From the NCBI GenBank assembly GCA_008632985.1, contig QPGO01000090.1, forward strand, positions 310,001 through 343,477: DNA of 33,477 nt, written 5' to 3'. A model generated the notes under the pieces. It made no database searches and was not told where the DNA came from. It was given only the letters and a program-made list of their open reading frames with translations. The stretch's first letter is position 1. The number at the start of each line of letters is the position of its first letter. This DNA comes from Psammoneis japonica. Lineage: Eukaryota. This document shows, one piece after another, positions 2,040 to 33,477 of this stretch. Position numbers and translations under genes: made by a program.

Positions 2040-4220
2040 ATCACGGATGACCCTCTGTGTCAGGTGTCAGGCGGTCTCCACAGCTGTGACTGCAGCAGCG
2101 CATCCACACACAGCAATCACCAAAATGGAAGCAAAGAAACAGAGGCAATTCGCTTGTTCAGTGGCCAAGAAAAAAAAACACAGAAGGGAAAGATTGTGAG
2201 GTGCACGCAGAAGGAATGCACTCAAGGCATGCATCTGGCGAGGTCCGCTGAAGATGTGGCACGCAACGACTTCAGCAAAGAAGAGCTGAAGCTGGGAATG
2301 GAGATGAGGACAGCAATGCCAAAAGATGACAAATCAGACTGCCAGGAAATGTTGCTGCAGAAACAACAAAAGGAAAGGGAGCTGGAGTTCCAGCACAAGG
2401 CAAAGCTTCATGACTGCAATGACAAAGTGAGGCAGTTCAAAAAGAGCAAGATTGCAGCACTTGCCAAGACATTGGATGAGACTGCTGCACCAAGCAAATG
2501 AAACAGAGAGTGCAAGCTGATCCCACCCATGCAAAGATTGGGGACAATCTGATTGGCAGCAGGAAACTGGATGCCAGGGGACAAAATCATGTGCAGAAAT
2601 GAGATGAAAAGATGTCTTGTTGGTGGATGGTGACAATGCCAGCGCAGATGGCTGCCACCAGATCTGATTGATCTGCCCATTGAAGCCAAAGCAGAGGAAC
2701 TGCATGGCGTGGATTGCAGCTGGTCAACAATCAACCAGAGACAAGCATGAACCAAGTCAATGAAGACTTTGGTGTGCAGATGAAATCATCCTTGACAATG
2801 GTCCAACCCCCTCAGCGTGGCAGCTGGCCGAAGACCAGTGCACAATGTGTGCAGCTGGCAAAGGTCAAGACAGACCTTTCCATGAGTGCAGGAGCAGACA
2901 CTTTAGACAAGGACTGCACCATGCCTGGATGGGGGATGTGAAGCTTGGATCACAGAACGCAGCAGCAAACATTTTAAGTTTGAAGGATGTGAAGAGCAAG
3001 TGTCGTGTTGCACATGACAACTGAGTGGTGGATGAGTTGCAGTTGCTGGAGGAGAAGACCAGCAAGAGAGCTGCGGTGTTCAAAGTTGATGACATTCTTG
3101 GACTGCATGCCTTTGAACCAAGCAAGAAGTTCTTTGACTGCACAAAGAACTCCAAGAAAGCAAGTTTCATGTGAGCATGCTGTGTCTAAGACAGAGAAGA
3201 AGCTCAACAAGAAGAGCAACAAGAGCAACAAGAAGTGCAGGAGTGCATCCAGTCATTCTGATGGTGGAGCAGGACTCTGCAGGCTGCTCCAAGAGGGCCA
3301 AGCAAGCACTCAGGCTGTGCTGCAAGGCTGGAATCCCCAGCGTGAGAGATTGAAGCTGTTTTTGCAATCAAACCAGGTGAAGAATCTGTTCATGGCACCT
3401 GAAAACATGGACAAAATGGTGGACAATCAGGGGGCACCTGTTGACATGCTGAAAAGAAAGACCAAACACCCACATCAATCCCATGACATGACAACATTGT
3501 TGCAATCTCACCTGAGACATGTGAGAACAGAGAGAAGGTGCAACCCCACTCTGTGCTGACACATTGTGAAAGCAAGCAGAGTGAAGATCCTGCATGTGGT
3601 TGTCATGACAATCAAGTGTCAATCAAGTGCAAAACTGCAATCCAAGAAAACATGCTGATGTGTGCAACACATTGGACACGACACTGCGCCAATGCAACAT
3701 GGCTTTGTTCAAGCAGATTGACTTTGTTGAGTGCAATCCTGGGTTCAAGCTGTCTGCAAATGCCACCAGCAACCATGTTCCTGAAGTTGAACAAAGTGTC
3801 AAGACCATCAAGGAGCAAACTGGAGCCACAGTGCACCACATGCGGGTGAGGCAATGCCCAAGCTGATGTGCAAGTGTGCCATGATCAAGAATGCCATGAT
3901 GGCAAGCATGTGCCCACAAAAGAAAAAATCTTGTCTGATGCATGCAGTCCACACACTGTCATGCAAAGAAGAAACCTTGACCATGACAAGCACTTTGCAC
4001 ATGGATTTGGCACATTTGTCGGACTCCTGTTCAACATTGAACACAATGGACATGCATGGTGTTGACAGTGCACACCTGCAACCACATCTTGATGTTCCCA
4101 AAGGCAGTCACTGCACAATGAACCTGCACACAGACAAGCAGCTGAATCCCTGCAAGTGCACTGCCACACCCCTGACCAGTTCTTGATGAACTGACAAAGT
4201 TGAGGATGAGGCCAGCCATT
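2040..4220 (+). mobile_element. Degenerate, 3'-truncated Ty1/Copia LTR retrotransposon of the diatom CoDi type (gag, protease, pre-integrase, integrase; no RT/RNase H seen)
   Basis: Collinear frame-hopping remnants: 'MPGWG..ANILSLKDVKSKCRVAHD' (~2920-3018, protease region), 'RAKQALRLCCKAGIPSVRD/LKLFLQSNQVKN..GAPVDMLKRKT' (~3293-3463, GAG-pre-integrase), 'TLDTTLRQCNMALFKQIDFVECNPGFK', 'HVPEVEQSVKTIKEQ' (from 3774), 'SDACSPHTVMQRRNLDHDKHF..FGTFV', 'NTMD..AHLQP..GSHCTMNLHT'. These match the order and wording of diatom Copia polyproteins as recalled. Confidence 0.85.
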
Positions 4221-7200
4221 TTCCTTTGGATCTTTGCAGTTGAAACTTGCTCTCACAGCAACACATCTGAAGGTCAAGAAAAGCCTTGACCTGCCAGCAA
4301 CCCATTCCTCACTTCCTTGTTCAGGCACCTGGAGAACTGGATCTTGTTTTTCTCATGTGCAACTGAAAGATGCATGGTGACATCCACTGAAGTGCCAGTT
4401 GTTTGAACACAAAGAGAAGGACTCTTTTTGTCTGATGCAGAGGCAAATTTTGATGTGCTCCAGCTCCAGGTGTGACCTCACAGTGCTGAACTGTGACATT
4501 GAAAGTGTTGTGAGACATGCCACATGTTGCACGTGCACATTTCTGCATGACTTTGGTGGAATTTTGCATCATTCTTTTGCAGTGCAGTTGTTGAGCTGTT
4601 CATCAAACAATTCTTTGAAGATGTCTGCAGAATGGCACAGGCACAGATGGAATTTTCAAAAGTTTTGGCTGTGCAGACCTTTGATGTGCCACAAACTTGG
4701 TTGGTTGTTCAAATGTAAAAGGGCTGGAGCATGTTTTCTTTTCCTCCATTTGCCTTCCAGGGACTTGGCTTCTGCCAGTGTTCTTCAGCCACAGTGCTGG
4801 CAAAGAAAGAGAAAGACCAAGTTCCCAGTTTTTTGCAAATCAGTGCAACAGCTGCTCAAAAGCTTCAGGGGGAGGAGGACAATTGAGAACCTGGTTGTCA
4901 ACAACTTTGGCTGCAGAGATGACTGGGTCAGGGCAGTTTTCTCTAAAGTCACAACAAGAGAGGGGACCACTTGGTCTTGGGAAGAAGCTTGATGGCAGGA
5001 AAATGTGGGTCATGTTGCTGGCATTGAAAAAATGAGTTCCTTGGTCACTCCAGGCACACAGACAAGGGTGCTCCAAGAATGTTCTCAGGCAAATGACTGT
5101 GCAAGACACTGCAGTTGAAGATTGTCATCATTGGACAATGGCATTTGACAACACAGAAACAAAGGGGTCAAGCAGTTTGAACATGGGCCCCATTTTGAAA
5201 GTGAGCCTTTCATGCAGAAAGCACAAAATCCAAAGCTCCATCATCTCAATGGAAAAGAAGTGCTGCAATGTGTCCACAGACATGGTTGCAGGTGAACATT
5301 TAAAGACAAAGCAACTGGCGGTCGAATGTTCAGTGTCAATGACCACACAACAGAAAAGTGGTCAATCAATTGACCAGGAGTCAATCACGAGGCAGATCTA
5401 AATCCAGAATGTCATGTTTGGTCACACAAAGCAATTTGTGTCAAGTCCCATGGCCTTCCAAATTCATTGGACACTGTTTTGTGTGCAAAGACCACTTGCA
5501 ATTTTGGTCATTTTGAAAGTGGTCATCCCCAAACCACAACTTCATCTTGTCTGTGTGCCTCCAGTCTGGGTGAGGGCAGGGCAGGGGAGTGACACAGATG
5601 GATGCTGGTCAAGCCAACATTTGCTTGTGATTTTTTTGGAATCATGGTGGGTGCCACTGCTTTTCAAAGAGGACCTGCACAGGGCTTGGGTGGCTTCCTT
5701 GGTTGATTGACAAAAAGTTCTTCAATGACACAGAGCCAGGCCCCCACAAGCAACCACCGAGAGATGATCTTGGACAAAATGTTAAAAGTGTTGCGGAGGA
5801 CAGGAACGACTGGATGGCAGAAATGAGCTGAGTGCAAAGGCAAAGCCGCAAACATCATTGGACATGATGCCATGCATTCTTTCAATTTCTTGCACATTCA
5901 ACACTGGCAGGGCTTGCTTTTTGGTGCTGCATGTGTCCACTCTTGGCCAAGGAATCTGAGAAAAGGCCTCAACTGAGCTGCAGGCCAGGGGTCATCTGCA
6001 AGAAACAATGTTCCTGCAATCATCCCCACCTTCTTGCACAGCTGCACTCAGCTCACTCCAAAGCAGATCAAGCAGAATGCCGTGGCCTGTCAGCAGCAAC
6101 AAACCGGGGAAATGGCACACTCCTCATGAGAGCAGCATCCCAGCTAGAAACACTTGATGGCACAACATCATGACATCAAGTGTTGGGTTTTAAAAGTTCT
6201 GTTTGAGGCTTGCCAAGTCAACAGTGTCTTGGAAAAGATGTGTCACATCACTTGCATTTTTTGCACAGACAAAACAACTGGACCTGGGAAACCTCTCCTG
6301 TCACACACAGTTAGAGTGTTTCCTTGGTGTCTGCTTGTAACTGAGAAATGGTTCACTTTGCCACACACCACTTGCCTCAAATGACCAAACCAGCCATGAA
6401 AGAAAAGGCATGAGCCAACGCCACCAACAAGGCCACCAAAGGCTTCATCTGGGATGCAAAAAATGAACCAATCATTTGTTGTGTCTGGGGCAAAAATTTG
6501 CTCTGCAAAGTTTGACTGAGAACAGCCCACATCATTTTGTGAACAGCCATCATGTCCAAAATCCTGTGCTGCCTGCAAGCTCAACCCACAATCCATCTTT
6601 TTGAGTTGTTGCTGAGATCTGGCCTGAAATCTGCCTTGCTGGCAGAGCATGCAACAATTGCAGGGAACAGTGTGGCTGCATGAGAGAGAGAGAAAGAGAG
6701 CATGTGCAGGATCCTTTGACTGTGAGTCAACAAGTGTTTCTGTGCCTGTCAAAGCCGCTGTCAACAACAGAGTGGTCTGCGTGCAATTGTGAATGTCCCC
6801 TTCCCTTGCTCTGACACATGTGATTTTTTCTAGCCAGGCATCAACAAGAGACAAATCTTCCTGTTGGAATGATGGAAAACACCCCTGACAGATCAACTTG
6901 TGCCTGTCACACATTGAGCCAAGAACAGCAGGACGAACCCAGCACTTCGCCAGTTCTGCATCCCAGCATTTTTAACAAATGGTTTTGAATGGTCAGGGCT
7001 TGGGGCTTTTGGGTCAGGGGCCAGGGAGTGGAACTTTTAGCAAAGCTCCTGTTTGGGATGACATTAAAAGCAGGTGTGACTGATCTAACAGTTTATCTGT
7101 GACATGACCGAGTCAACCCATGAGGAGTTGGCGCCCTGGGATGAAGTCGCTATTCTCAGAACAGCCACCTTGGAAGGTGTAACAGAGATTGAGCTGATGG

Positions 7201-14949: not shown

Positions 14950-16430
14950 GTTGAGGTGATCGCTTTGAACAGAACCGGTTGTGGACCTGTGCACTGTTGG
15001 AGCAGCAACTGCATTCTGGTCATCAAAGTTGGGTTGACTGTTGTGGAGTTGGGCACCCCCATGGTGTGCTGGTTTCTCCATCAAAAGGTGCTGCGAGGAG
15101 AGAAAACAGTCTTTTTCACAGCACTTGCCAGTGGCCCGGAGGCCCAGAAGGCAAAGTGTGGAAAAGCTTGCTTGGCGCTCGCTGGCGCCAATTGATGTGA
15201 AAAGAAGTGCTGGGTTGGGCAAACAATGACAAAAAAAGCAAAATGGCTGATTGTTTTTTTTTTTCAATGTGTTGAGTTGTTGTTTCTGGATTTTTTGGCG
15301 CCTTCTTGTTGCATGACCACAGCAAACAGCTTTGGTCACATGAGGCATGGTGTCAGCAGATGTCACAATCATTTGAGCACTGCAGAGAAATGCACACAGT
15401 TGCGGGTTTCTCTGTGCATGTGTGCATGTCTTTCTTCATTGATGTCCTTTGCTGCAGTTGACAGTGTGGATGAAAGGACCTGGAGACACTCATTTTCACC
15501 CTTGCCGCACACACACACCAAAAACAGCAACAGCACTTGACTGAGCAACTCATCAGGCCAGCTGGGAACTCCACCCATGATGAGGACCCAAGCAGGTGCT
15601 TGTTGCTTCCAACTGGTGTCTCTCACAAAACTGGGGATGTTTTGTAAATTTTGTGAATCTGGCATGAGAAATCAATGTGAGAAGGGCAGAGCACCCAGAG
15701 CAAAGCTTGTGTTCTCAGCCTTCCTGCTGCAGTGAGCAGCCAAGAGCATCTTGTAAGACTGTGGGAAGAACAGCAAAAAAACAAGAGCAAGAGCTCCCGC
15801 TGTGTGTCTGCTTGAACTCAATTGACAGCAGAAGCAGCTGGGTTGTTGGTGGCAAACAAAACAAGGGGCAGCAGCTTTCCTGTGACAGCCACATGTGGGG
15901 GGAGAGGGGGTGTTGGAGAAACCTGCCTGGCTCCAACAAAAACAAGAAGAGAGCAGCACGCACATTGTGCACAGAGCCGCAAATCTGTGGAAACAGATTT
16001 TTCAGTTTTTGAACCTTCGCTGTGAAGGTGCTGACAAGGAGATGTGCAAAGGCTCAGGCCAAGGTTGCTGACAATGGCACAGGTGGTGCACCCTGTGATT
16101 TGCAGGGACCAGGGGTGCTGTGGCATTGGGAGAGGAGGGTGGTCGGGGAAAATTCTTGGTGGTGGAGCAGGTGCGTGCACGGTGGTCAAGGAAAATTGGT
16201 GGTGGAACAGGTGTGCAAAGTGCTCTTGGCAATGGAAAAAAGAAAGAGGGAACCAAAGTGTGGACAGACGGTTGGAAAAGGGAGTTGTCGGTGGCGGTTG
16301 GGTGGCGGAGCAGAGGGGTTTCTTGATGTGCGGAGTGGTGGGTGGCTGGGTGGAGAGGGCCATGGCGAAGTTTAGGCTGAGGATTTGGGAGGCCCAGCTT
16401 TGGGATTGGCTGTGTGGTGGGAGATGCCGA
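14950..16430. other. Island 2: CpG/TpA-depleted unclassified (probably repeat-derived) DNA
   Basis: Only 3 TA found by hand (GTAA ~15644, GTAA ~15754, TTAG ~16373) in ~1.5 kb; CG sparse; CpG-rich flanks. Confidence 0.9.
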
Positions 16431-27687: not shown

Positions 27688-28950
27688 TTAATCTTTAGAT
27701 GTCTTTTTTCTGTCTGATTTTGCCATTTTCTTTGCAAGAGCTATTTCTAATTCTTGGCTCTGCATGGCTACGGCCAAGGGATTGTCAGCTCTGGTGCTAG
27801 TAGTATTGTTCCTTGTTGACCTTGCTTGTAAAATGGTATCAATGGGCGTAACGCTTCCGCATTTACCGCAGTAAACGAGTTTTGCCTTGGATCCAACTTG
27901 CAGAAAGGTCTGGCAAGCGGGGCATTGGACTACTGTTGCGTTGCCCTTGGCGATTTGCTTCCAGGTGTGGTCTGTTCCACGAATGAGGAGTTTCTTGCCA
28001 TTGTATACGCCCACTTGCTGTTCACGCGTCGGACACTTCAATGGAGGATCATTTCTCGTTGTAGTATTTACTTTGAGATCTCGAGGAGCCGAAGATACAC
28101 TAGCCTTGTTTAAAGAAGGCTTGGTGGTGAGCTTATTGAGAGATGGAGGTTTAGTGGGTGCTGGTTTTCGTTTGTTCCTTGGAGGAGGAGATAGTGCGAT
28201 ATCTTCATCATTCTTTTCGGGGCGATTGTTGAGACGTTGTGATTCCTTAACCACATTCGAATATAGCGATTTAAGATCGTTGTTTTCGACAATGTTCTCG
28301 TGGTGTTTGCTGGAGGACGAAGTCTTTAGATCCCGTTGAGAAGCGGCAATCTGTGCCATAGCCTCTTGCTGCTCACGAAGAAACTCCGGATCATTCATAC
28401 AGTCTAAGAAACCGCCATCAGAATCATCCGATCCAGTTGTATTTACGCTGAAGTTAGTTGATAAAGATGCGGTGGTGCATGTTGCTTGGTCTTGAGCGTA
28501 AGAACTGGGTTGAGAAGCAGAAGAACCATGAAGCTCCTTGTCAGCACCACATGTGGATGATGAGCTGTTGAATTGCTCCATAATCTCCTGCTGTTGGCGA
28601 ATGAAATCCTCGTCTTCAAACAAGTTAACAAAACAAGTGTTGGAACTCATGTTCGTTGCATTTGCGCTTTCGTCTCCGTCATAGCTGCAGCTGCTGCTCA
28701 GCAGACTCGACGATGCCGCAGAATAGTGCTTCTTACGATCACCCCTGGCGGATGATTTGGAAACTTTCAAGGGTGAAAAGCTTGTACACTTTGCATCAAT
28801 ATTTCTTCTCGGCCTTCGGATCGGCTTAACGTCGCAATCCACAACAGTTCTTGGTACTTTTGAGTCACTTCCACTGCTGTCACGCCATGTCTTCGTAGTA
28901 TGGACCTGGTGTCTTTCGGGAGCTTCGTCTTTGTAAGTTGGAGATGCCAT
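27688..28950 (-). CDS. Hypothetical protein with C-terminal CxxC-x14-CxxC (LSD1-like) zinc finger; ORF open to 29040, probable start 28950
   Basis: Intact 450-aa ORF; 'QCPACQTFLQVGSKAKLVYCGKCGSV' at 27859-27924; two 'F..Q Q E.M.Q' helical repeats. Confidence 0.75.
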   Translation of the reverse strand: MASPTYKDEAPERHQVHTTKTWRDSSGSDSKVPRTVVDCDVKPIRRPRRNIDAKCTSFSPLKVSKSSARGDRKKHYSAASSSLLSSSCSYDGDESANATNMSSNTCFVNLFEDEDFIRQQQEIMEQFNSSSSTCGADKELHGSSASQPSSYAQDQATCTTASLSTNFSVNTTGSDDSDGGFLDCMNDPEFLREQQEAMAQIAASQRDLKTSSSSKHHENIVENNDLKSLYSNVVKESQRLNNRPEKNDEDIALSPPPRNKRKPAPTKPPSLNKLTTKPSLNKASVSSAPRDLKVNTTTRNDPPLKCPTREQQVGVYNGKKLLIRGTDHTWKQIAKGNATVVQCPACQTFLQVGSKAKLVYCGKCGSVTPIDTILQARSTRNNTTSTRADNPLAVAMQSQELEIALAKKMAKSDRKKTSKD

Positions 28951-29010
28951 TTCTATTAGCTGTAGATTGTGGCCGGAGTTTCCGTGACCTTCGACCTTGC
29001 CGTGAGAAAA

Positions 29011-30805
29011 GTGAAAGTGGTCGCGCAAATACCTTCGCATTTTGTGATGTTATGATGTGACTTGCGGGAATATCGAGATCGCGGTTACAAATCGAATTTT
29101 GTCATTTAAAATGAAACAAAAAGTGCGAACATTAAGTAAAATTGCAAGGGACATGCTAATAAGTAATTTTGAACTGATTTTCAATAGTAATTCGATTGCT
29201 TTTTTTATGCTTTTTCTTAAGAGACATAGATTCATTGGGATGACACGCTCGAACCATCAATTCGCAAAAAGACATGGAGTCGGGGGGCTGTACATCAAAC
29301 AACACAGTGTATGTAATGTAAGGTACAATTCTCAACGCGACATCCGACAACCTCCCATCTTGGTGGAGTGTGCCTGCAAAAAAGGCTGAAGGAATTTAAC
29401 TGTGGAGTGGCAGCAACTCGGAAACGAAAAAGAAAAAAAGAGAGAAAGAAGAGGAAAAGTCAAAAACAAAAGGGCCGGCACCACCAAGAAAAATGAGGCA
29501 GGAAAAATCCTGCTTGTTTGGTGCAGTTTTTCTGCACCAAAAGCTGACATTTGTTGCAGTTGTGTTGGAGTTTCACGACTTGCCGACCAGCAGCACATGT
29601 TCAGCCTCATCAACCCCAAACCCTGAACTCACTGTGTGGCTTGCAAACACATTGTCGGTGCTGTCAACCGCCGTTGCCATGTCAACTCGGGTGTGCAGAA
29701 ACTGGAAGTGTGAGAGCACAAAAAACCCACACAACTCAATCTGAGTTGCAGCACAAAAAATTTGCACATTGTCCACAATCACATCAGCATGTTTTCCACT
29801 GAAACTTTGTGCATCTGCACCATGAAAACCACCTCTGGCCTGATGCTCCAACACACTCCTTTGCACAAGCCGTCAACTGCTGACTTGCCGTGTGTGGTGC
29901 TGCACATGTCAAGCATCCGAGGGTGACACTTGGAACCCATGCCACCCAACACCATGTCAACCACTCTTCTGTTGATTCCCATGGGTGCATCTTCCACACT
30001 GCAAAAACTTTGTCTGTCTTTCCTGTGAAAACTGCCTCCAACCCCAATGTTCCAAAAGGTTGTGCTGCACTGGGTGTGCCATCGGCTGGATCAGGAGGAC
30101 TCAAGCAGGTCTCTCTTGATGCCCCTGGATGACACTCTCCCTGCAGGTCCCCCCTGCACACAAGTCAACTGCTGTCCAAATCTTGTGTGAGACCCTGTGA
30201 CCAGGTTTTTGCTTTTTCTGAGCATGCACAGCCACAGCCAGTCTTGCAACAAGCAGCGCTGTCCAGACAACTCATTTCCTGCAGCCCAGTTGCCAGCTGT
30301 TGCTGTCATGCAATGGCCCTTTTTTACCCAGCACAGGTCTGTGTTTTTTGCTCCTGGTCTGGTGTCATTTTTCCCTTGCTTCTGCTCTTTTCATTCTGGC
30401 TGTTGCTTGGGTTTTTTGTGCATTGACAAAACTTCTTCTGGCAGAGCTTTTCTTCAACCCAGCTTTTGTTGCTGGCTTGCCCCACTCCATTTGTCCTTTT
30501 TGCAACTTTTTTTGTCAAAAAAGCTTGGCGCATGTCTCAATCTGCCTGTCTTTGTTGCTCCACCCCTTGCGCTGTTTCTCCATGCTCAGAAGAGCTGTGC
30601 TCAACACAGCTGTGACCTTTTGCATGCATTTTTTGAGCCCATCTTGAGCAGCTCCCCAATCTTCTTATTTGCCTCACTCAACTCATGGCTGAAATCATGT
30701 CCTGACAACAGCCTTGTTGGCTGTTCTCTGATGCCAATGAGCCAAAAGGCCCCATGTCTGTTGTGTTGGTGGCAAAGTTGGCAAGGTTGTTGTTTGTGCT
30801 CACCC
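29011..30805 (+). repeat. Direct tandem duplication, unit A (CpG/TpA-retaining ~330-bp head, converted body)
   Basis: Shared blocks with unit B: gaaagtggtcgcgc, gcgggaatatcgagatcgcggtta, caattctcaacgcgacatccgaca, tgtggagtggcagcaactcgga, ttttctgcaccaaaagctgacattt, ttcattctggctgttgcttggg, ttgcctcactcaactcatggct. Confidence 0.92.
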
Positions 30806-30808
30806 AAC
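29345..30808. other. Island 3: CpG/TpA-depleted DNA
   Basis: 3 TA by hand count (TTAA ~29397, TTAC ~30325, TTAT ~30666) in ~1.46 kb. Confidence 0.92.
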
Positions 30809-32226
30809 GTGAAAAGTGGTCGCGCGAATACGTTCGGATTTTGTGACTCGCGGGAATATCGAGATCGCGGTTATAAATCGAAGTTTGTCATTTAACGAAA
30901 CAAAAAGTGCGAACACACTGGACATGCTGATAATTGATTTGAACTGTTCGTGTCGATAGTAACTAGTGCGTTTTTTATGTTTTATCTTAAAAGAGATATA
31001 GAATCATAGCGCTGACACGCTCGAAGCATCAATTCGTAAAAAGACATCATTTGAGTCTGGGGGCTGTAGGCCTTACAGCAGCACGGCACAACACGCACGA
31101 AGGGTGGTGTTTCAATTCTCAACGCGACATCCGACAGACCTCCAATCTTGGCCCTGTAAAAAATGCTCAAGGAATTTTAATTCAACTGTGGAGTGGCAGC
31201 AACTCGGAGAAGAGAAAGAAAAAAGAGAGAAAGAGGGAAAAGCAAAAAGAAAAGGGCTGGCATCACCAAGAGAAATGAGGCAGAGTGTGCAACACACATC
31301 ATGGCAGGGCACCACCACCACCAGGAAGGGAGCAAACTTGGGTCACATGTCGCCTGTGTGGCAAAATCCCACTTGTTTCATGCACTTTTTCTGCACCAAA
31401 AGCTGACATTTTTGGTGGTTGCACTGCTGGGCTGGTGTGCCATCATTGTCCAGGTCTGTGGGGTGGGCTCCAAGTGGGCAAGTCTCTCAGTGCTGGGTGA
31501 CTCTCTCCCCACAGATCTTCCTCCCTGAACATGAGCCAACTGCCCAAATCTTGTGTGGCCCTGTGGTCAGGCTCCTGCTTGTTTTGAGCATGCACAGCCA
31601 CAGTTGCTCTTGCAACAAGCAGCACTGTCCAGACAACTCATTGTTTGTGGCACCCTGTAAAATGCTGCTGCTGCTTCTGCTGGCACTGCTCTGACAACAT
31701 TGCCAGTTGTTGCCATTGTGTGCAATTGCCAGTTTTTCTGCCCACAGGTCTGTGTTGTTTGCTCCCAGCCTGGCTTCATTTTCCTTGTCAGTGCCCTGCT
31801 GCAAACCATGGCATGCTTCTGTGCCTTTCATTCTGGCTGTTGCTTGGGCTCTTTTTGTTGCACACCAGCTGACAAACTTCTTCTGGCAGAGCTCTTCTTC
31901 AACCCAGCTTTTGTTGATGGCTGCTTGCCCCCCTCTATTTTCCCTTTCTTCAACTCTTTTTTTTTTAACAAGCTCTGTGCATGTCTCTGTCTGGCAACCT
32001 GCTTTGTTGCTCCACCCCCCTCATGTGGTTTCTCTGTGCGCACCACCCCCCATTTCCAGCAGAGTGGGTGCCCTCAACACTGTTGTGACCTTTTGCCCTC
32101 ATTCTGCAAGACCTTGATCAGCTCCCCAATCTTGTTTGCCTCACTCAACTCATGGCTAAAGTGTTCATCTGTCATGGTGGCAAGGCAGTTGGCAAGGCAG
32201 TTGGCAAGGTTGTTTGTGCTTGCACC
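30809..32226 (+). repeat. Direct tandem duplication, unit B (converted sequence continues beyond it to the window end)
   Basis: Same blocks in the same order as 29011-30805. Confidence 0.92.
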
Positions 32227-33477
32227 AGTGGCAAGAAGGCAGCCACACATGCATGTGGTGTGAGCATTTTTGCACACTCTTCCTTGTTTCCAACACACAG
32301 CAACAGGAATTGTTGTCTTAAAACAGCAGGGGCACCTCATTTCTGGTTTGGTCCAAACAAGCTGTGGGGAGTTCAGAGATGGGCAAAAACGCAACTTTTG
32401 GTTGGAAGGGGTTGTTGTGTTGACTCTCCTGTTGCTGGTGTCTCTGCTCACAAGAAACTCTTTCCTCAGCTCTCTGCCCCACAACAAATGCACCACTGTT
32501 GCATCTCCTGGTTGTGCTGTGCTCACCACCTTTTTGTGGGTTTTTGTTGAGGTGGTCTCAAAGACCATTGTGTGAGCCACATGTTCATCACTCATCATGG
32601 CGTGTGCTGGCATGCTGGCTGGCTTCTGTTCTTGACAATTCTGTTTTTATTTTTCTGCACTGCAAAGGGTTCAGCAAATCAGAGGGTTTTGACAGTGTCA
32701 ACAAAAACTGTCTTGAGTCACCCTGTTCAAATGTCCATGAACTGCAAGACACAACCAAACTTGGGGATGCCTTCTTAAAACTTGTTGTGCTGTGCCAAGG
32801 GTCTGGCATCAAAAGATTGTCAGATTGCCTTTGGTGGCTAAGTTCAAAAAAGCAAGTCCTTTCCAAGATTTGAGTTTTGCATGATTTTTGTGCTGGTTCA
32901 CACCTTGGCCCCTGCTTCCTCTGAATGGGTGTTTTGGTGTGCAGAAGAGGAGTTTGGCATGTGTTTGCTGAGACAACAGAAGCTGAGTCATGCACAGGGA
33001 GCACAACCTTGTGAAACATCAATGAGAGGAAAATTTGTGAAAAGTCACCTCAGCCACCAAATGCTCACCCCAAAACTGCTTTCTCTGCCATCAGGTTTGT
33101 GAAAATTCTCCTGACCCTTCCTCCCCATGTGCAACTCATGCCAAACTTGCACCAACCACCAATCTGCCAGACATCCCCATTTACTGCAGCTCTCAACCAG
33201 AAATCATTTTTCACAATGCCAAAACCCTGCACCAACAATTGTTGTCTTTCTCAGCAGTGTTGCATCACAACAACTGCAGCATGCACAGAGCAGAGTCTGG
33301 CCACATGTCTCGGATGACTTCATGTGATCTGCTGATCTGTGCTGCAAAAAACAGCTGTGCAGAGTGTGCTCCAAGAAAGAGATTTTTGATTGTGGCAAAA
33401 GCCAGCTTTTCTTCCTCCTGTGCAGCTGTGCAGCAGTTGACAAAGGTCATTTGTTTGCATTGTGGAGGTGCACCCCC
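31140..33477. other. Island 4: CpG/TpA-depleted DNA, runs off the window
   Basis: About 11 TA and very few CG by hand count in ~2.3 kb. Confidence 0.92.
32179..32209 (+). repeat. 12-bp tandem repeat (GGCAAGGCAGTT)x2.6
   Basis: ggcaaggcagttggcaaggcagttggcaagg. Confidence 0.85.

Follow-up and report, generated by a model that had tools for sequence, protein, structure and literature searches.

In the genome of the diatom Psammoneis japonica, TA dinucleotides in transposons change to TG or CA, and this erasure is confined to repeat blocks, with host DNA spared. A slower decay of CG to TG/CA follows the loss of TA. The window, the whole stretch of 33,477 nucleotides that was analysed, is the end of contig C90 in the 91.4-Mb assembly and holds a tandem pair of units, A (29011-30808) and B (30809 to ~32230), each consisting of a ~385 b head with normal CG and TA followed by an erased body. 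We consider it likely that two processes act on silent repeat blocks and that the two heads are spared edges of such blocks, lightly touched.

Organization of the duplicated locus

Erasure sets in at the same homologous point in units A and B (Table 1). From its position, head A is probably the promoter and 5' UTR of the neighboring minus-strand gene. The 420-residue product of this gene gave Pfam matches that were all below the curated cut-offs, and a search of the assembly gave a single copy of the protein and two weak domain matches. The gene is strongly heterozygous over 27742-28660, with 23 differing letters in a 486-b short-read contig, versus one in 627 b for head A. A cyclophilin encoded elsewhere in the window has named homologues from diatoms, among them Seminavis, Fragilaria and Mayamaea.

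A DNA search of the genome itself returned the head sequence in two copies only, A and B. Both retain a GCGGGAA motif (29065-29071 and 30851-30857) inside a long identical block, which we take to resemble an E2F site. The sequence of body B is likewise single-locus, its two assembly matches being itself and body A. The ~500 b repeat within body A has 42 matches on other contigs at 67-91% identity, every fetched copy of which is TA-poor, and erased block 1, presumably related to a Copia integrase, has 73 matches in the assembly.

Table 1. Features of the window, in window coordinates (b, bases)
Feature	Coordinates	Strand	Remarks
Erased block 1, built of dispersed repeats; old-repeat control	2250..7200		20 TA, 32 CG, 0 RTAY in 4951 b
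Erased block 2	14950..16250		2 TA, 17 CG
Host gene, 420 aa, frame open from 29040	27688..28950	-	Low complexity, C-terminal zinc-ribbon-like stretch; normal CG and TA
Head A, upstream region of minus-strand gene	29011..29400		CG and TA kept (17 CG, 21 TA, 5 RTAY in 390 b); 61 b from ATG at 28950
Eight listed sites and omitted counter-sites	29026..29378	+	CG class 29027, 29063, 29112, 29183; TA class 29088, 29225, 29265, 29377; counter-sites 29157, 29164
Body A, erased block	29401..30808		2 TA, 16 CG, 0 RTAY in 1408 b
Dispersed repeat within body A, missing from body B	29545..30070 (ends approximate)		Unaligned in B
A/B junction	30808..30809		Departure point of short-read contig, depth 31, rejoining at 32320
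Head B, second head copy, between two erased blocks	30809..31190		CG and TA kept (26 CG, 20 TA, 3 RTAY in 382 b)
Body B and ~90 b, erased	31191..32319		Alignable to body A up to ~32230
Erased block running to contig end	32320..33477		Within the block at 31170-33477

Composition of the erased blocks

Four erased blocks were delimited, at 2250-7200, 14950-16250, 29400-30800 and 31170-33477. Compared with the rest of the window, they hold 0.09 times the TA, 0.12 times the CG and 1.6 times the CA/TG, at unchanged GC content. The loss depends on the following base: TAT and TAC stand at 0.02-0.04 of their level outside the blocks, TAG at 0.10 and TAA at 0.22. When 133 kb were divided into 266 bins of 500 b, 73 of the bins contained four or fewer TA. 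Two haplotig-like contigs (C324 and C270) allowed alleles to be compared over 53 kb of aligned sites, and here TA-class differences number 6 at 1940 TA positions in ordinary DNA versus 15 at 215 in the blocks.

At the edge of body A (29400-29700), TA ends sharply at 29397, while CG thins over ~300 b. A sharp TA edge beside a gradual CG edge is as expected of two processes with different reach.

Erased DNA also contains long reading frames rich in C, H, Q and W, at 30224-30895, 31808-32263, 32074-32613 and in block 1. A Pfam search of 18 six-frame readings of the erased blocks matched no families. These frames are likely false, opened by the loss of TAA and TAG.

Direction and context of TA change in Copia elements

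An RVT_2 profile gave 150 matches in the genome, 90 of which were examined. In a Copia family of 16, TA ranges from 5.0 down to 1.1 per 100 b, with CG steady at 4.5-5.0. Changes were polarised at sites where four TA-rich siblings agree, and five partly erased copies were scored. In these copies, which share one reference and whose pooled counts reuse the same sites, TAY had become TGY at 224 of 804 sites and TAR had changed at 44 of 488, with other A>G at 22 of 6503; over all TA strand-sites, 268 of 1292 had changed. The preference for TAY over TAR (TAC/TAT versus TAA/TAG) is about threefold, the TAY rate is ~80-fold that of other A>G as a relative measure from the copies, and TAC is the most-hit triplet (126/397). 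Six further copies carry 1-9 TA changes each.

A second Copia family gives the same picture. At 93 TA sites common to two TA-rich copies, the erased copy reads CA at 40, TG at 36, TA at 13 and another pair at 4. Survival again follows context, with none of 37 RTAY and none of 16 YTAY sites retained, as against 5 of 26 RTAR and 8 of 14 YTAR. TA to TG/CA is the direction of change in the transposons of this genome. The substitution types, the direction for both TA and CG, and the TAY preference, all of which had been proposed from the two heads, thus hold for the genome, with sibling copies as outgroups in two families; the head pair, which lacks an outgroup, does not establish them.

In a separate Copia family of 17 (L142, L148 and L151-L165), the copies are 97-98% alike, hold 1.0-1.9 TA per 100 b and have 1.9% discordant CA/TG pairs. 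The source element of this family may already have been TA-poor, a possible escape.

Strands, timing and extent of TA erasure

Hits fall on both strands, 33/33 in one comparison and 16/11, 11/16, 23/27, 38/31 and 48/47 in the five scored copies, with no strand runs in any of the five. They are patchy along the copies. Where a site was hit in two copies, the product was the same at only 190 of 312, so that the hits must be independent and later than insertion. In four of the five copies the terminal 1.1 kb has been spared (1/41, 1/40, 3/41 and 1/40), while the fifth has 24/41. The spectrum, context, strands, timing and spared ends are thus all read from the copies themselves. Both strands being hit, the patches, the timing after insertion and the erasure of single-locus DNA together fit a process that works on chromosomal DNA, and we infer that it is guided by a chromatin domain; they do not fit reverse transcription or duplication alone.

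CG decay is a separate, slower process

In the five copies CG changed to TG at 22 of 1580 sites, exceeding other C>T (4 of 3469; p=3e-8). The rate of decay is ~12-fold above background and ~20-fold below that of TAY loss. The sequence-only reading had treated the TA and CG changes as one pattern; they are two processes, as young elements lose TA with CG almost untouched. By analogy with the known CG methylation of diatom transposons, we suggest that the CG decay may arise from deamination of methylated C. Diatom transposon islands are described, in the available text of the source, as CG-methylated in a DNMT5-dependent manner within an unmethylated genome (PMC9998398). Isolated CG-methylated islands would give both a slow CG>TG/CA decay and a block layout, but such methylation leaves the TA loss seen here unexplained.

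Differences between the two heads

Neither head is depleted in TA or CG, and both lie outside the erased blocks. Sites of the form RTAY, the most sensitive context, number five in head A, three in head B and zero in the three erased stretches counted. The eight A/B differences from which the sequence-only reading started are all present, with the CA/TG form in A: for TA (B/A) ttataa/ttacaa, gagata/gagaca, ttcgta/ttcgca and ctgtaa/ctgcaa, and for CG gcgcga/gcgcaa, ctcgcg/cttgcg, aacgaa/aatgaa and gtcgat/ttcaat. That A has the TG/CA form holds for these chosen eight only: full alignments contain 2-4 opposite TA sites. A reads TA and B reads TG at 29157/30928 and 29164/30935 in every alignment tried; some alignments add counter-sites at 29310, 29319, 29206 or 29324, in a poorly aligned stretch. 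The A:B direction of the TA class is accordingly 4:2, 4:3 (three of five alignment settings) or 4:4 (BLAST and MAFFT), and that of the CG class is one-sided at 4:0, 5:0 or 6:0, depending on the alignment. Taken together the two classes give 8:2 (p=0.11) or 9:3 (p=0.15), and the one-sidedness of the pair is non-significant once the omitted sites are added. All four TA cases are RTA versus RCA, which the sequence-only reading matched to the survivor rule, but four of four has a chance probability of 0.10, and including the two TAA counter-sites lowers the likelihood ratio of that rule to 0.86.

The expected excess of TA- and CG-class transitions was borne out on full pairwise alignment, in five of five settings. 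Pyrimidine-purine steps (TA/CG/CA/TG) make up 48-49% of head sites and contain 10 of 11 countable transitions (two settings) or 12 of 14 (three settings), an excess with p about 0.005. Between alleles, the corresponding share is 23/45 in ordinary DNA, 22/29 at edges and 79/96 in blocks. The heads therefore resemble block edges in their transition share, and they exceed the allele differences of ordinary DNA at p=0.016-0.020. In the host gene, on 29 rows out of 40 from a table of 102, 12 of 21 allele transitions belong to the class, not far under the heads. TA and CG changes are about equal in the heads, whereas fresh targets have far more TA than CG changes (95 versus 3 in copy L150). Across 342 aligned columns the heads differ at 39, with 27 transversions and 12 transitions; this surplus of transversions means that alignment error is present in the pair. 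In the MAFFT alignment, nine adjacent columns (29307-29315 versus 31091-31099) are all transitions, alternating TG/CA and TA/CG, a run for which a micro-inversion or misalignment is as likely a source.

The own-genome search with head and body gave only A and B, and the same two copies alone were found with a 24-b conserved head block allowing two mismatches. Metagenome scans gave no matches to the head motif and no relatives among 66 candidate stretches. As no third copy or orthologue was found, the direction of change in the pair cannot be polarised. The process is real but weakly shown by the head pair, whose value lies in marking a spared edge and which says little on direction.

History of units A and B

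The two bodies are discordant, CA versus TG, at 7 of 101 pairs, compared with 21% and 16% in old dispersed repeats that were erased separately (p=2e-4 versus the first) and 2-7% in families erased of TA only. Such low discordance indicates that most of the erasure is older than the A/B split, although 7% may leave room for some later erasure. None of the five discordant body sites listed lies in R..Y context, which points to late CG decay.

Head B is flanked by erased DNA and ~11% diverged from A, yet it has escaped erasure, whereas in Copia copies half of the TA is gone at less than 1% background divergence; head B is in fact the less changed copy despite lying between erased blocks. The short-read contig of depth 31 listed in Table 1 departs exactly at 30808, and from this single contig joint, whose short side spans 30 letters and whose two sides are separated by unread letters, one haplotype appears to be without unit B. 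Short-read contig depth is 37.6 over unit B and 57.2 over head A, where contig depth is no copy number. A further contig joint of depth 31, at 32386-32446, skips 59 b, and past 32500 the second haplotype seems strongly divergent.

The absence of B from one haplotype exactly from the junction suggests that unit B represents a divergent allele of this upstream region. On this basis we put at somewhat short of even the chance that head B occupied a gene-side edge for the greater part of its history and came to lie behind unit A recently. The alternative to recent arrival is that the head protects itself, in which case the pair would be a natural test of what blocks the editor. A broader version of this idea, which we regard as speculative and rather improbable, is that a chromatin-guided DNA adenine editor erasing TpA is common to diatoms and an unrelated alga as an old SAR feature, serving as a RIP-like defence of opposite polarity whose reach is set by a boundary carried in promoter DNA, the 380-b head B being self-insulating.

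Proposed mechanism

The two-process explanation can be outlined as follows. In the fast process, which the copies show directly, the A of TpA becomes G on one strand or the other (TA>TG, or TA>CA when seen from the opposite strand); it works on chromosomal copies after insertion and fades toward block ends. The slower CG>TG/CA decay comes later in the silent blocks. The heads would represent the spared gene-side edge of a block, receiving few hits of both kinds and never being full targets, and these few hits would produce the excess of TA- and CG-class transitions. The bodies would have been largely erased before the A/B split, and an unerased head B would need an extra step, recent arrival or self-protection.

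As the likeliest chemistry for the fast process, we put at about even the chance that a TadA/ADAT2-type enzyme, directed to its targets by repeat chromatin, deaminates adenine in DNA to inosine. The adenosine deaminases TadA and ADAT2 prefer TA and TAC. The A>G outcome with a 5' T and the ranking of TAC as most-hit triplet are alike here, but the known substrates of these enzymes are tRNA, and G after TAC is not preferred in the copies (26/80 versus 34/85 for T). The genome encodes ADAT2-like, TadA-like and dCMP deaminases and a deaminase-dioxygenase fusion. A candidate ADAT2 homologue (L172) carries HAE, EPCIM and GCRND motifs across an intron, to be set beside the HxE, PCxxC and conserved Asn looked for in such a candidate; its presence assigns it no role. 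Since ADAT2 and TadA are universal tRNA enzymes, finding them says little. In the fusion (L171:319-1791, minus strand, contig C79), a single open frame holds both a zinc deaminase domain and a DIOX_N/2OG-Fe(II) dioxygenase; it probably serves nucleobase salvage. A repeated element at L178, L179, L180 and L184 (contigs C301 and C297; 91-95% identity), which is poor in TA but retains its CG, encodes a C5 DNA methyltransferase domain. Errors of the polymerase-eta type, which hit AA as well as TA, were considered and rejected, non-TA A>G being found at only 22 of 6503 sites.

Alternative explanations

The head differences could be ordinary drift between old copies, the pattern arising from site picking and the heads never touched by the block processes. 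The 2-4 counter-sites left out of the original list, the direction and context probabilities (0.11-0.15 and 0.10), the 27 transversions among 39 mismatches and the retained RTAY sites all agree with drift, but the transition-class excess in all five settings and its departure from ordinary-DNA allele differences do not, and we consider this reading a minority possibility. Far less probable is a reverse change in B, CA>TA as in fungal RIP together with TG/CA>CG. The heads lack an outgroup that would oppose it, and one polarised comparison, the L073 branch, did show CA>TA at 22 of 305 sites. This excess is spurious and comes from taking an erased copy as the witness: among 41 apparent CA>TA sites, that copy has the same product at 25, the opposite at 13, TA at 1 and another pair at 2, and 25 of 41 is much the same proportion as the 61% of independent hits that share a product. 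CA>TA in the young Copia family stands at 2 of 2161, and RIP would not produce CG.

For the genome-wide signature, the polarised data come from retrotransposons, and a change made during retrotransposition, in RNA or cDNA, or selection on the element sequence, might thus be envisaged. Against this, the strands are equally hit without runs, the copies are hit independently and patchily, and the single-locus DNA of bodies A and B is erased too, which makes the idea very unlikely. A sequencing or assembly artefact, such as a modified base misread as G or C, is the most improbable of the explanations considered. The short-read contigs come from a run that may be the same sample as the assembly, the only run holding this stretch; a second run (X2) covered 7 of 30 bins, none within the duplication. 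The contigs agree with the assembly over head A (28931-29557) save for one differing letter, at 29522, and throughout unit B (30779-32475), where all 1697 letters match. Erasure is moreover graded by copy, patchy and discordant between copies, and, according to the available text of the preprint (bioRxiv 10.64898/2026.01.13.699255), lines of Bigelowiella acquired this signature de novo. A more serious rival, though one we still think unlikely, is that the modified base is T and not A, with thymine oxidation or T-removing repair following CG methylation and turning TA to CA. Sequence cannot separate A>G from T>C in the same pair, the blocks lose CG also, and the genome has 27 C5-methyltransferase matches as well as a deaminase fused to a 2OG-Fe dioxygenase. 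TA is lost long before CG, however, so the loss is not tied to T:G mismatches from methyl-C decay. A Tet_JBP search of the genome was blank, but its control was silent too, so absence is not implied.

Comparison with known systems

So far a single report, on the integrated viruses of Bigelowiella, describes a targeted A>G mutator of nuclear DNA; the same signature in a diatom would point to a widespread defence. As diatoms allow gene knock-outs, a near-saturated signature on their own transposons would make both enzyme and targeting testable. The process also matters for annotation: once its TAA and TAG stops are lost, erased DNA presents long reading frames that are false, and TA erasure inflates transposon ages.

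In the RIP of ascomycete fungi, CA/TG in repeats is changed to TA. As in the process described here, the transitions of RIP are dense, specific to a dinucleotide and found on both strands, and they ruin repeats that have already inserted, but the polarity is opposite, as RIP makes TA and the process here removes it. RIP-type CA>TA shows no excess over other C>T in the scored copies (2/2161 versus 4/3469). Unlike in RIP, duplication alone is no trigger here, for the duplicated heads keep TA and CG and the bodies were mostly erased before the split, a test that is weak if B arrived recently or if the copies are too diverged. RIP has been linked to DNMT4/RID in the available text of the source (PMC9998398).

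The closest system is that of Bigelowiella natans, as presented in the available text of the preprint of Mettrop et al. (bioRxiv 10.64898/2026.01.13.699255). There, two viral regions acquired 231 de novo changes, of which 230 were TpA>TpG/CpA, at a rate raised ~1000-fold per generation and active in some lines only, and an ADAT2-type deaminase was proposed, not shown. The main text, as available, contains none of the words 'diatom', 'CpG' or 'trinucleotide', and the literature searched, which left most subscription journals outside its coverage, yielded no diatom report of a TA-erasing signature. As far as that text describes, both systems involve only TpA>TpG/CpA, on both strands and in foreign or repeat blocks, leaving TA-poor, CA/TG-rich clusters with transposon domains enriched among TA-poor genes. 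They differ in that Bigelowiella is a rhizarian with integrated viral DNA, whereas the targets here are host transposons and adjoining single-locus DNA in a diatom, a stramenopile; on the preprint's account the rate was measured in lines there, and here it is deduced from copies. Erasure here is near complete, and the TAY preference, the spared element ends and the later CG decay were measured here. TA erasure in this diatom bears the same signature as that of Bigelowiella, a kind described once before.
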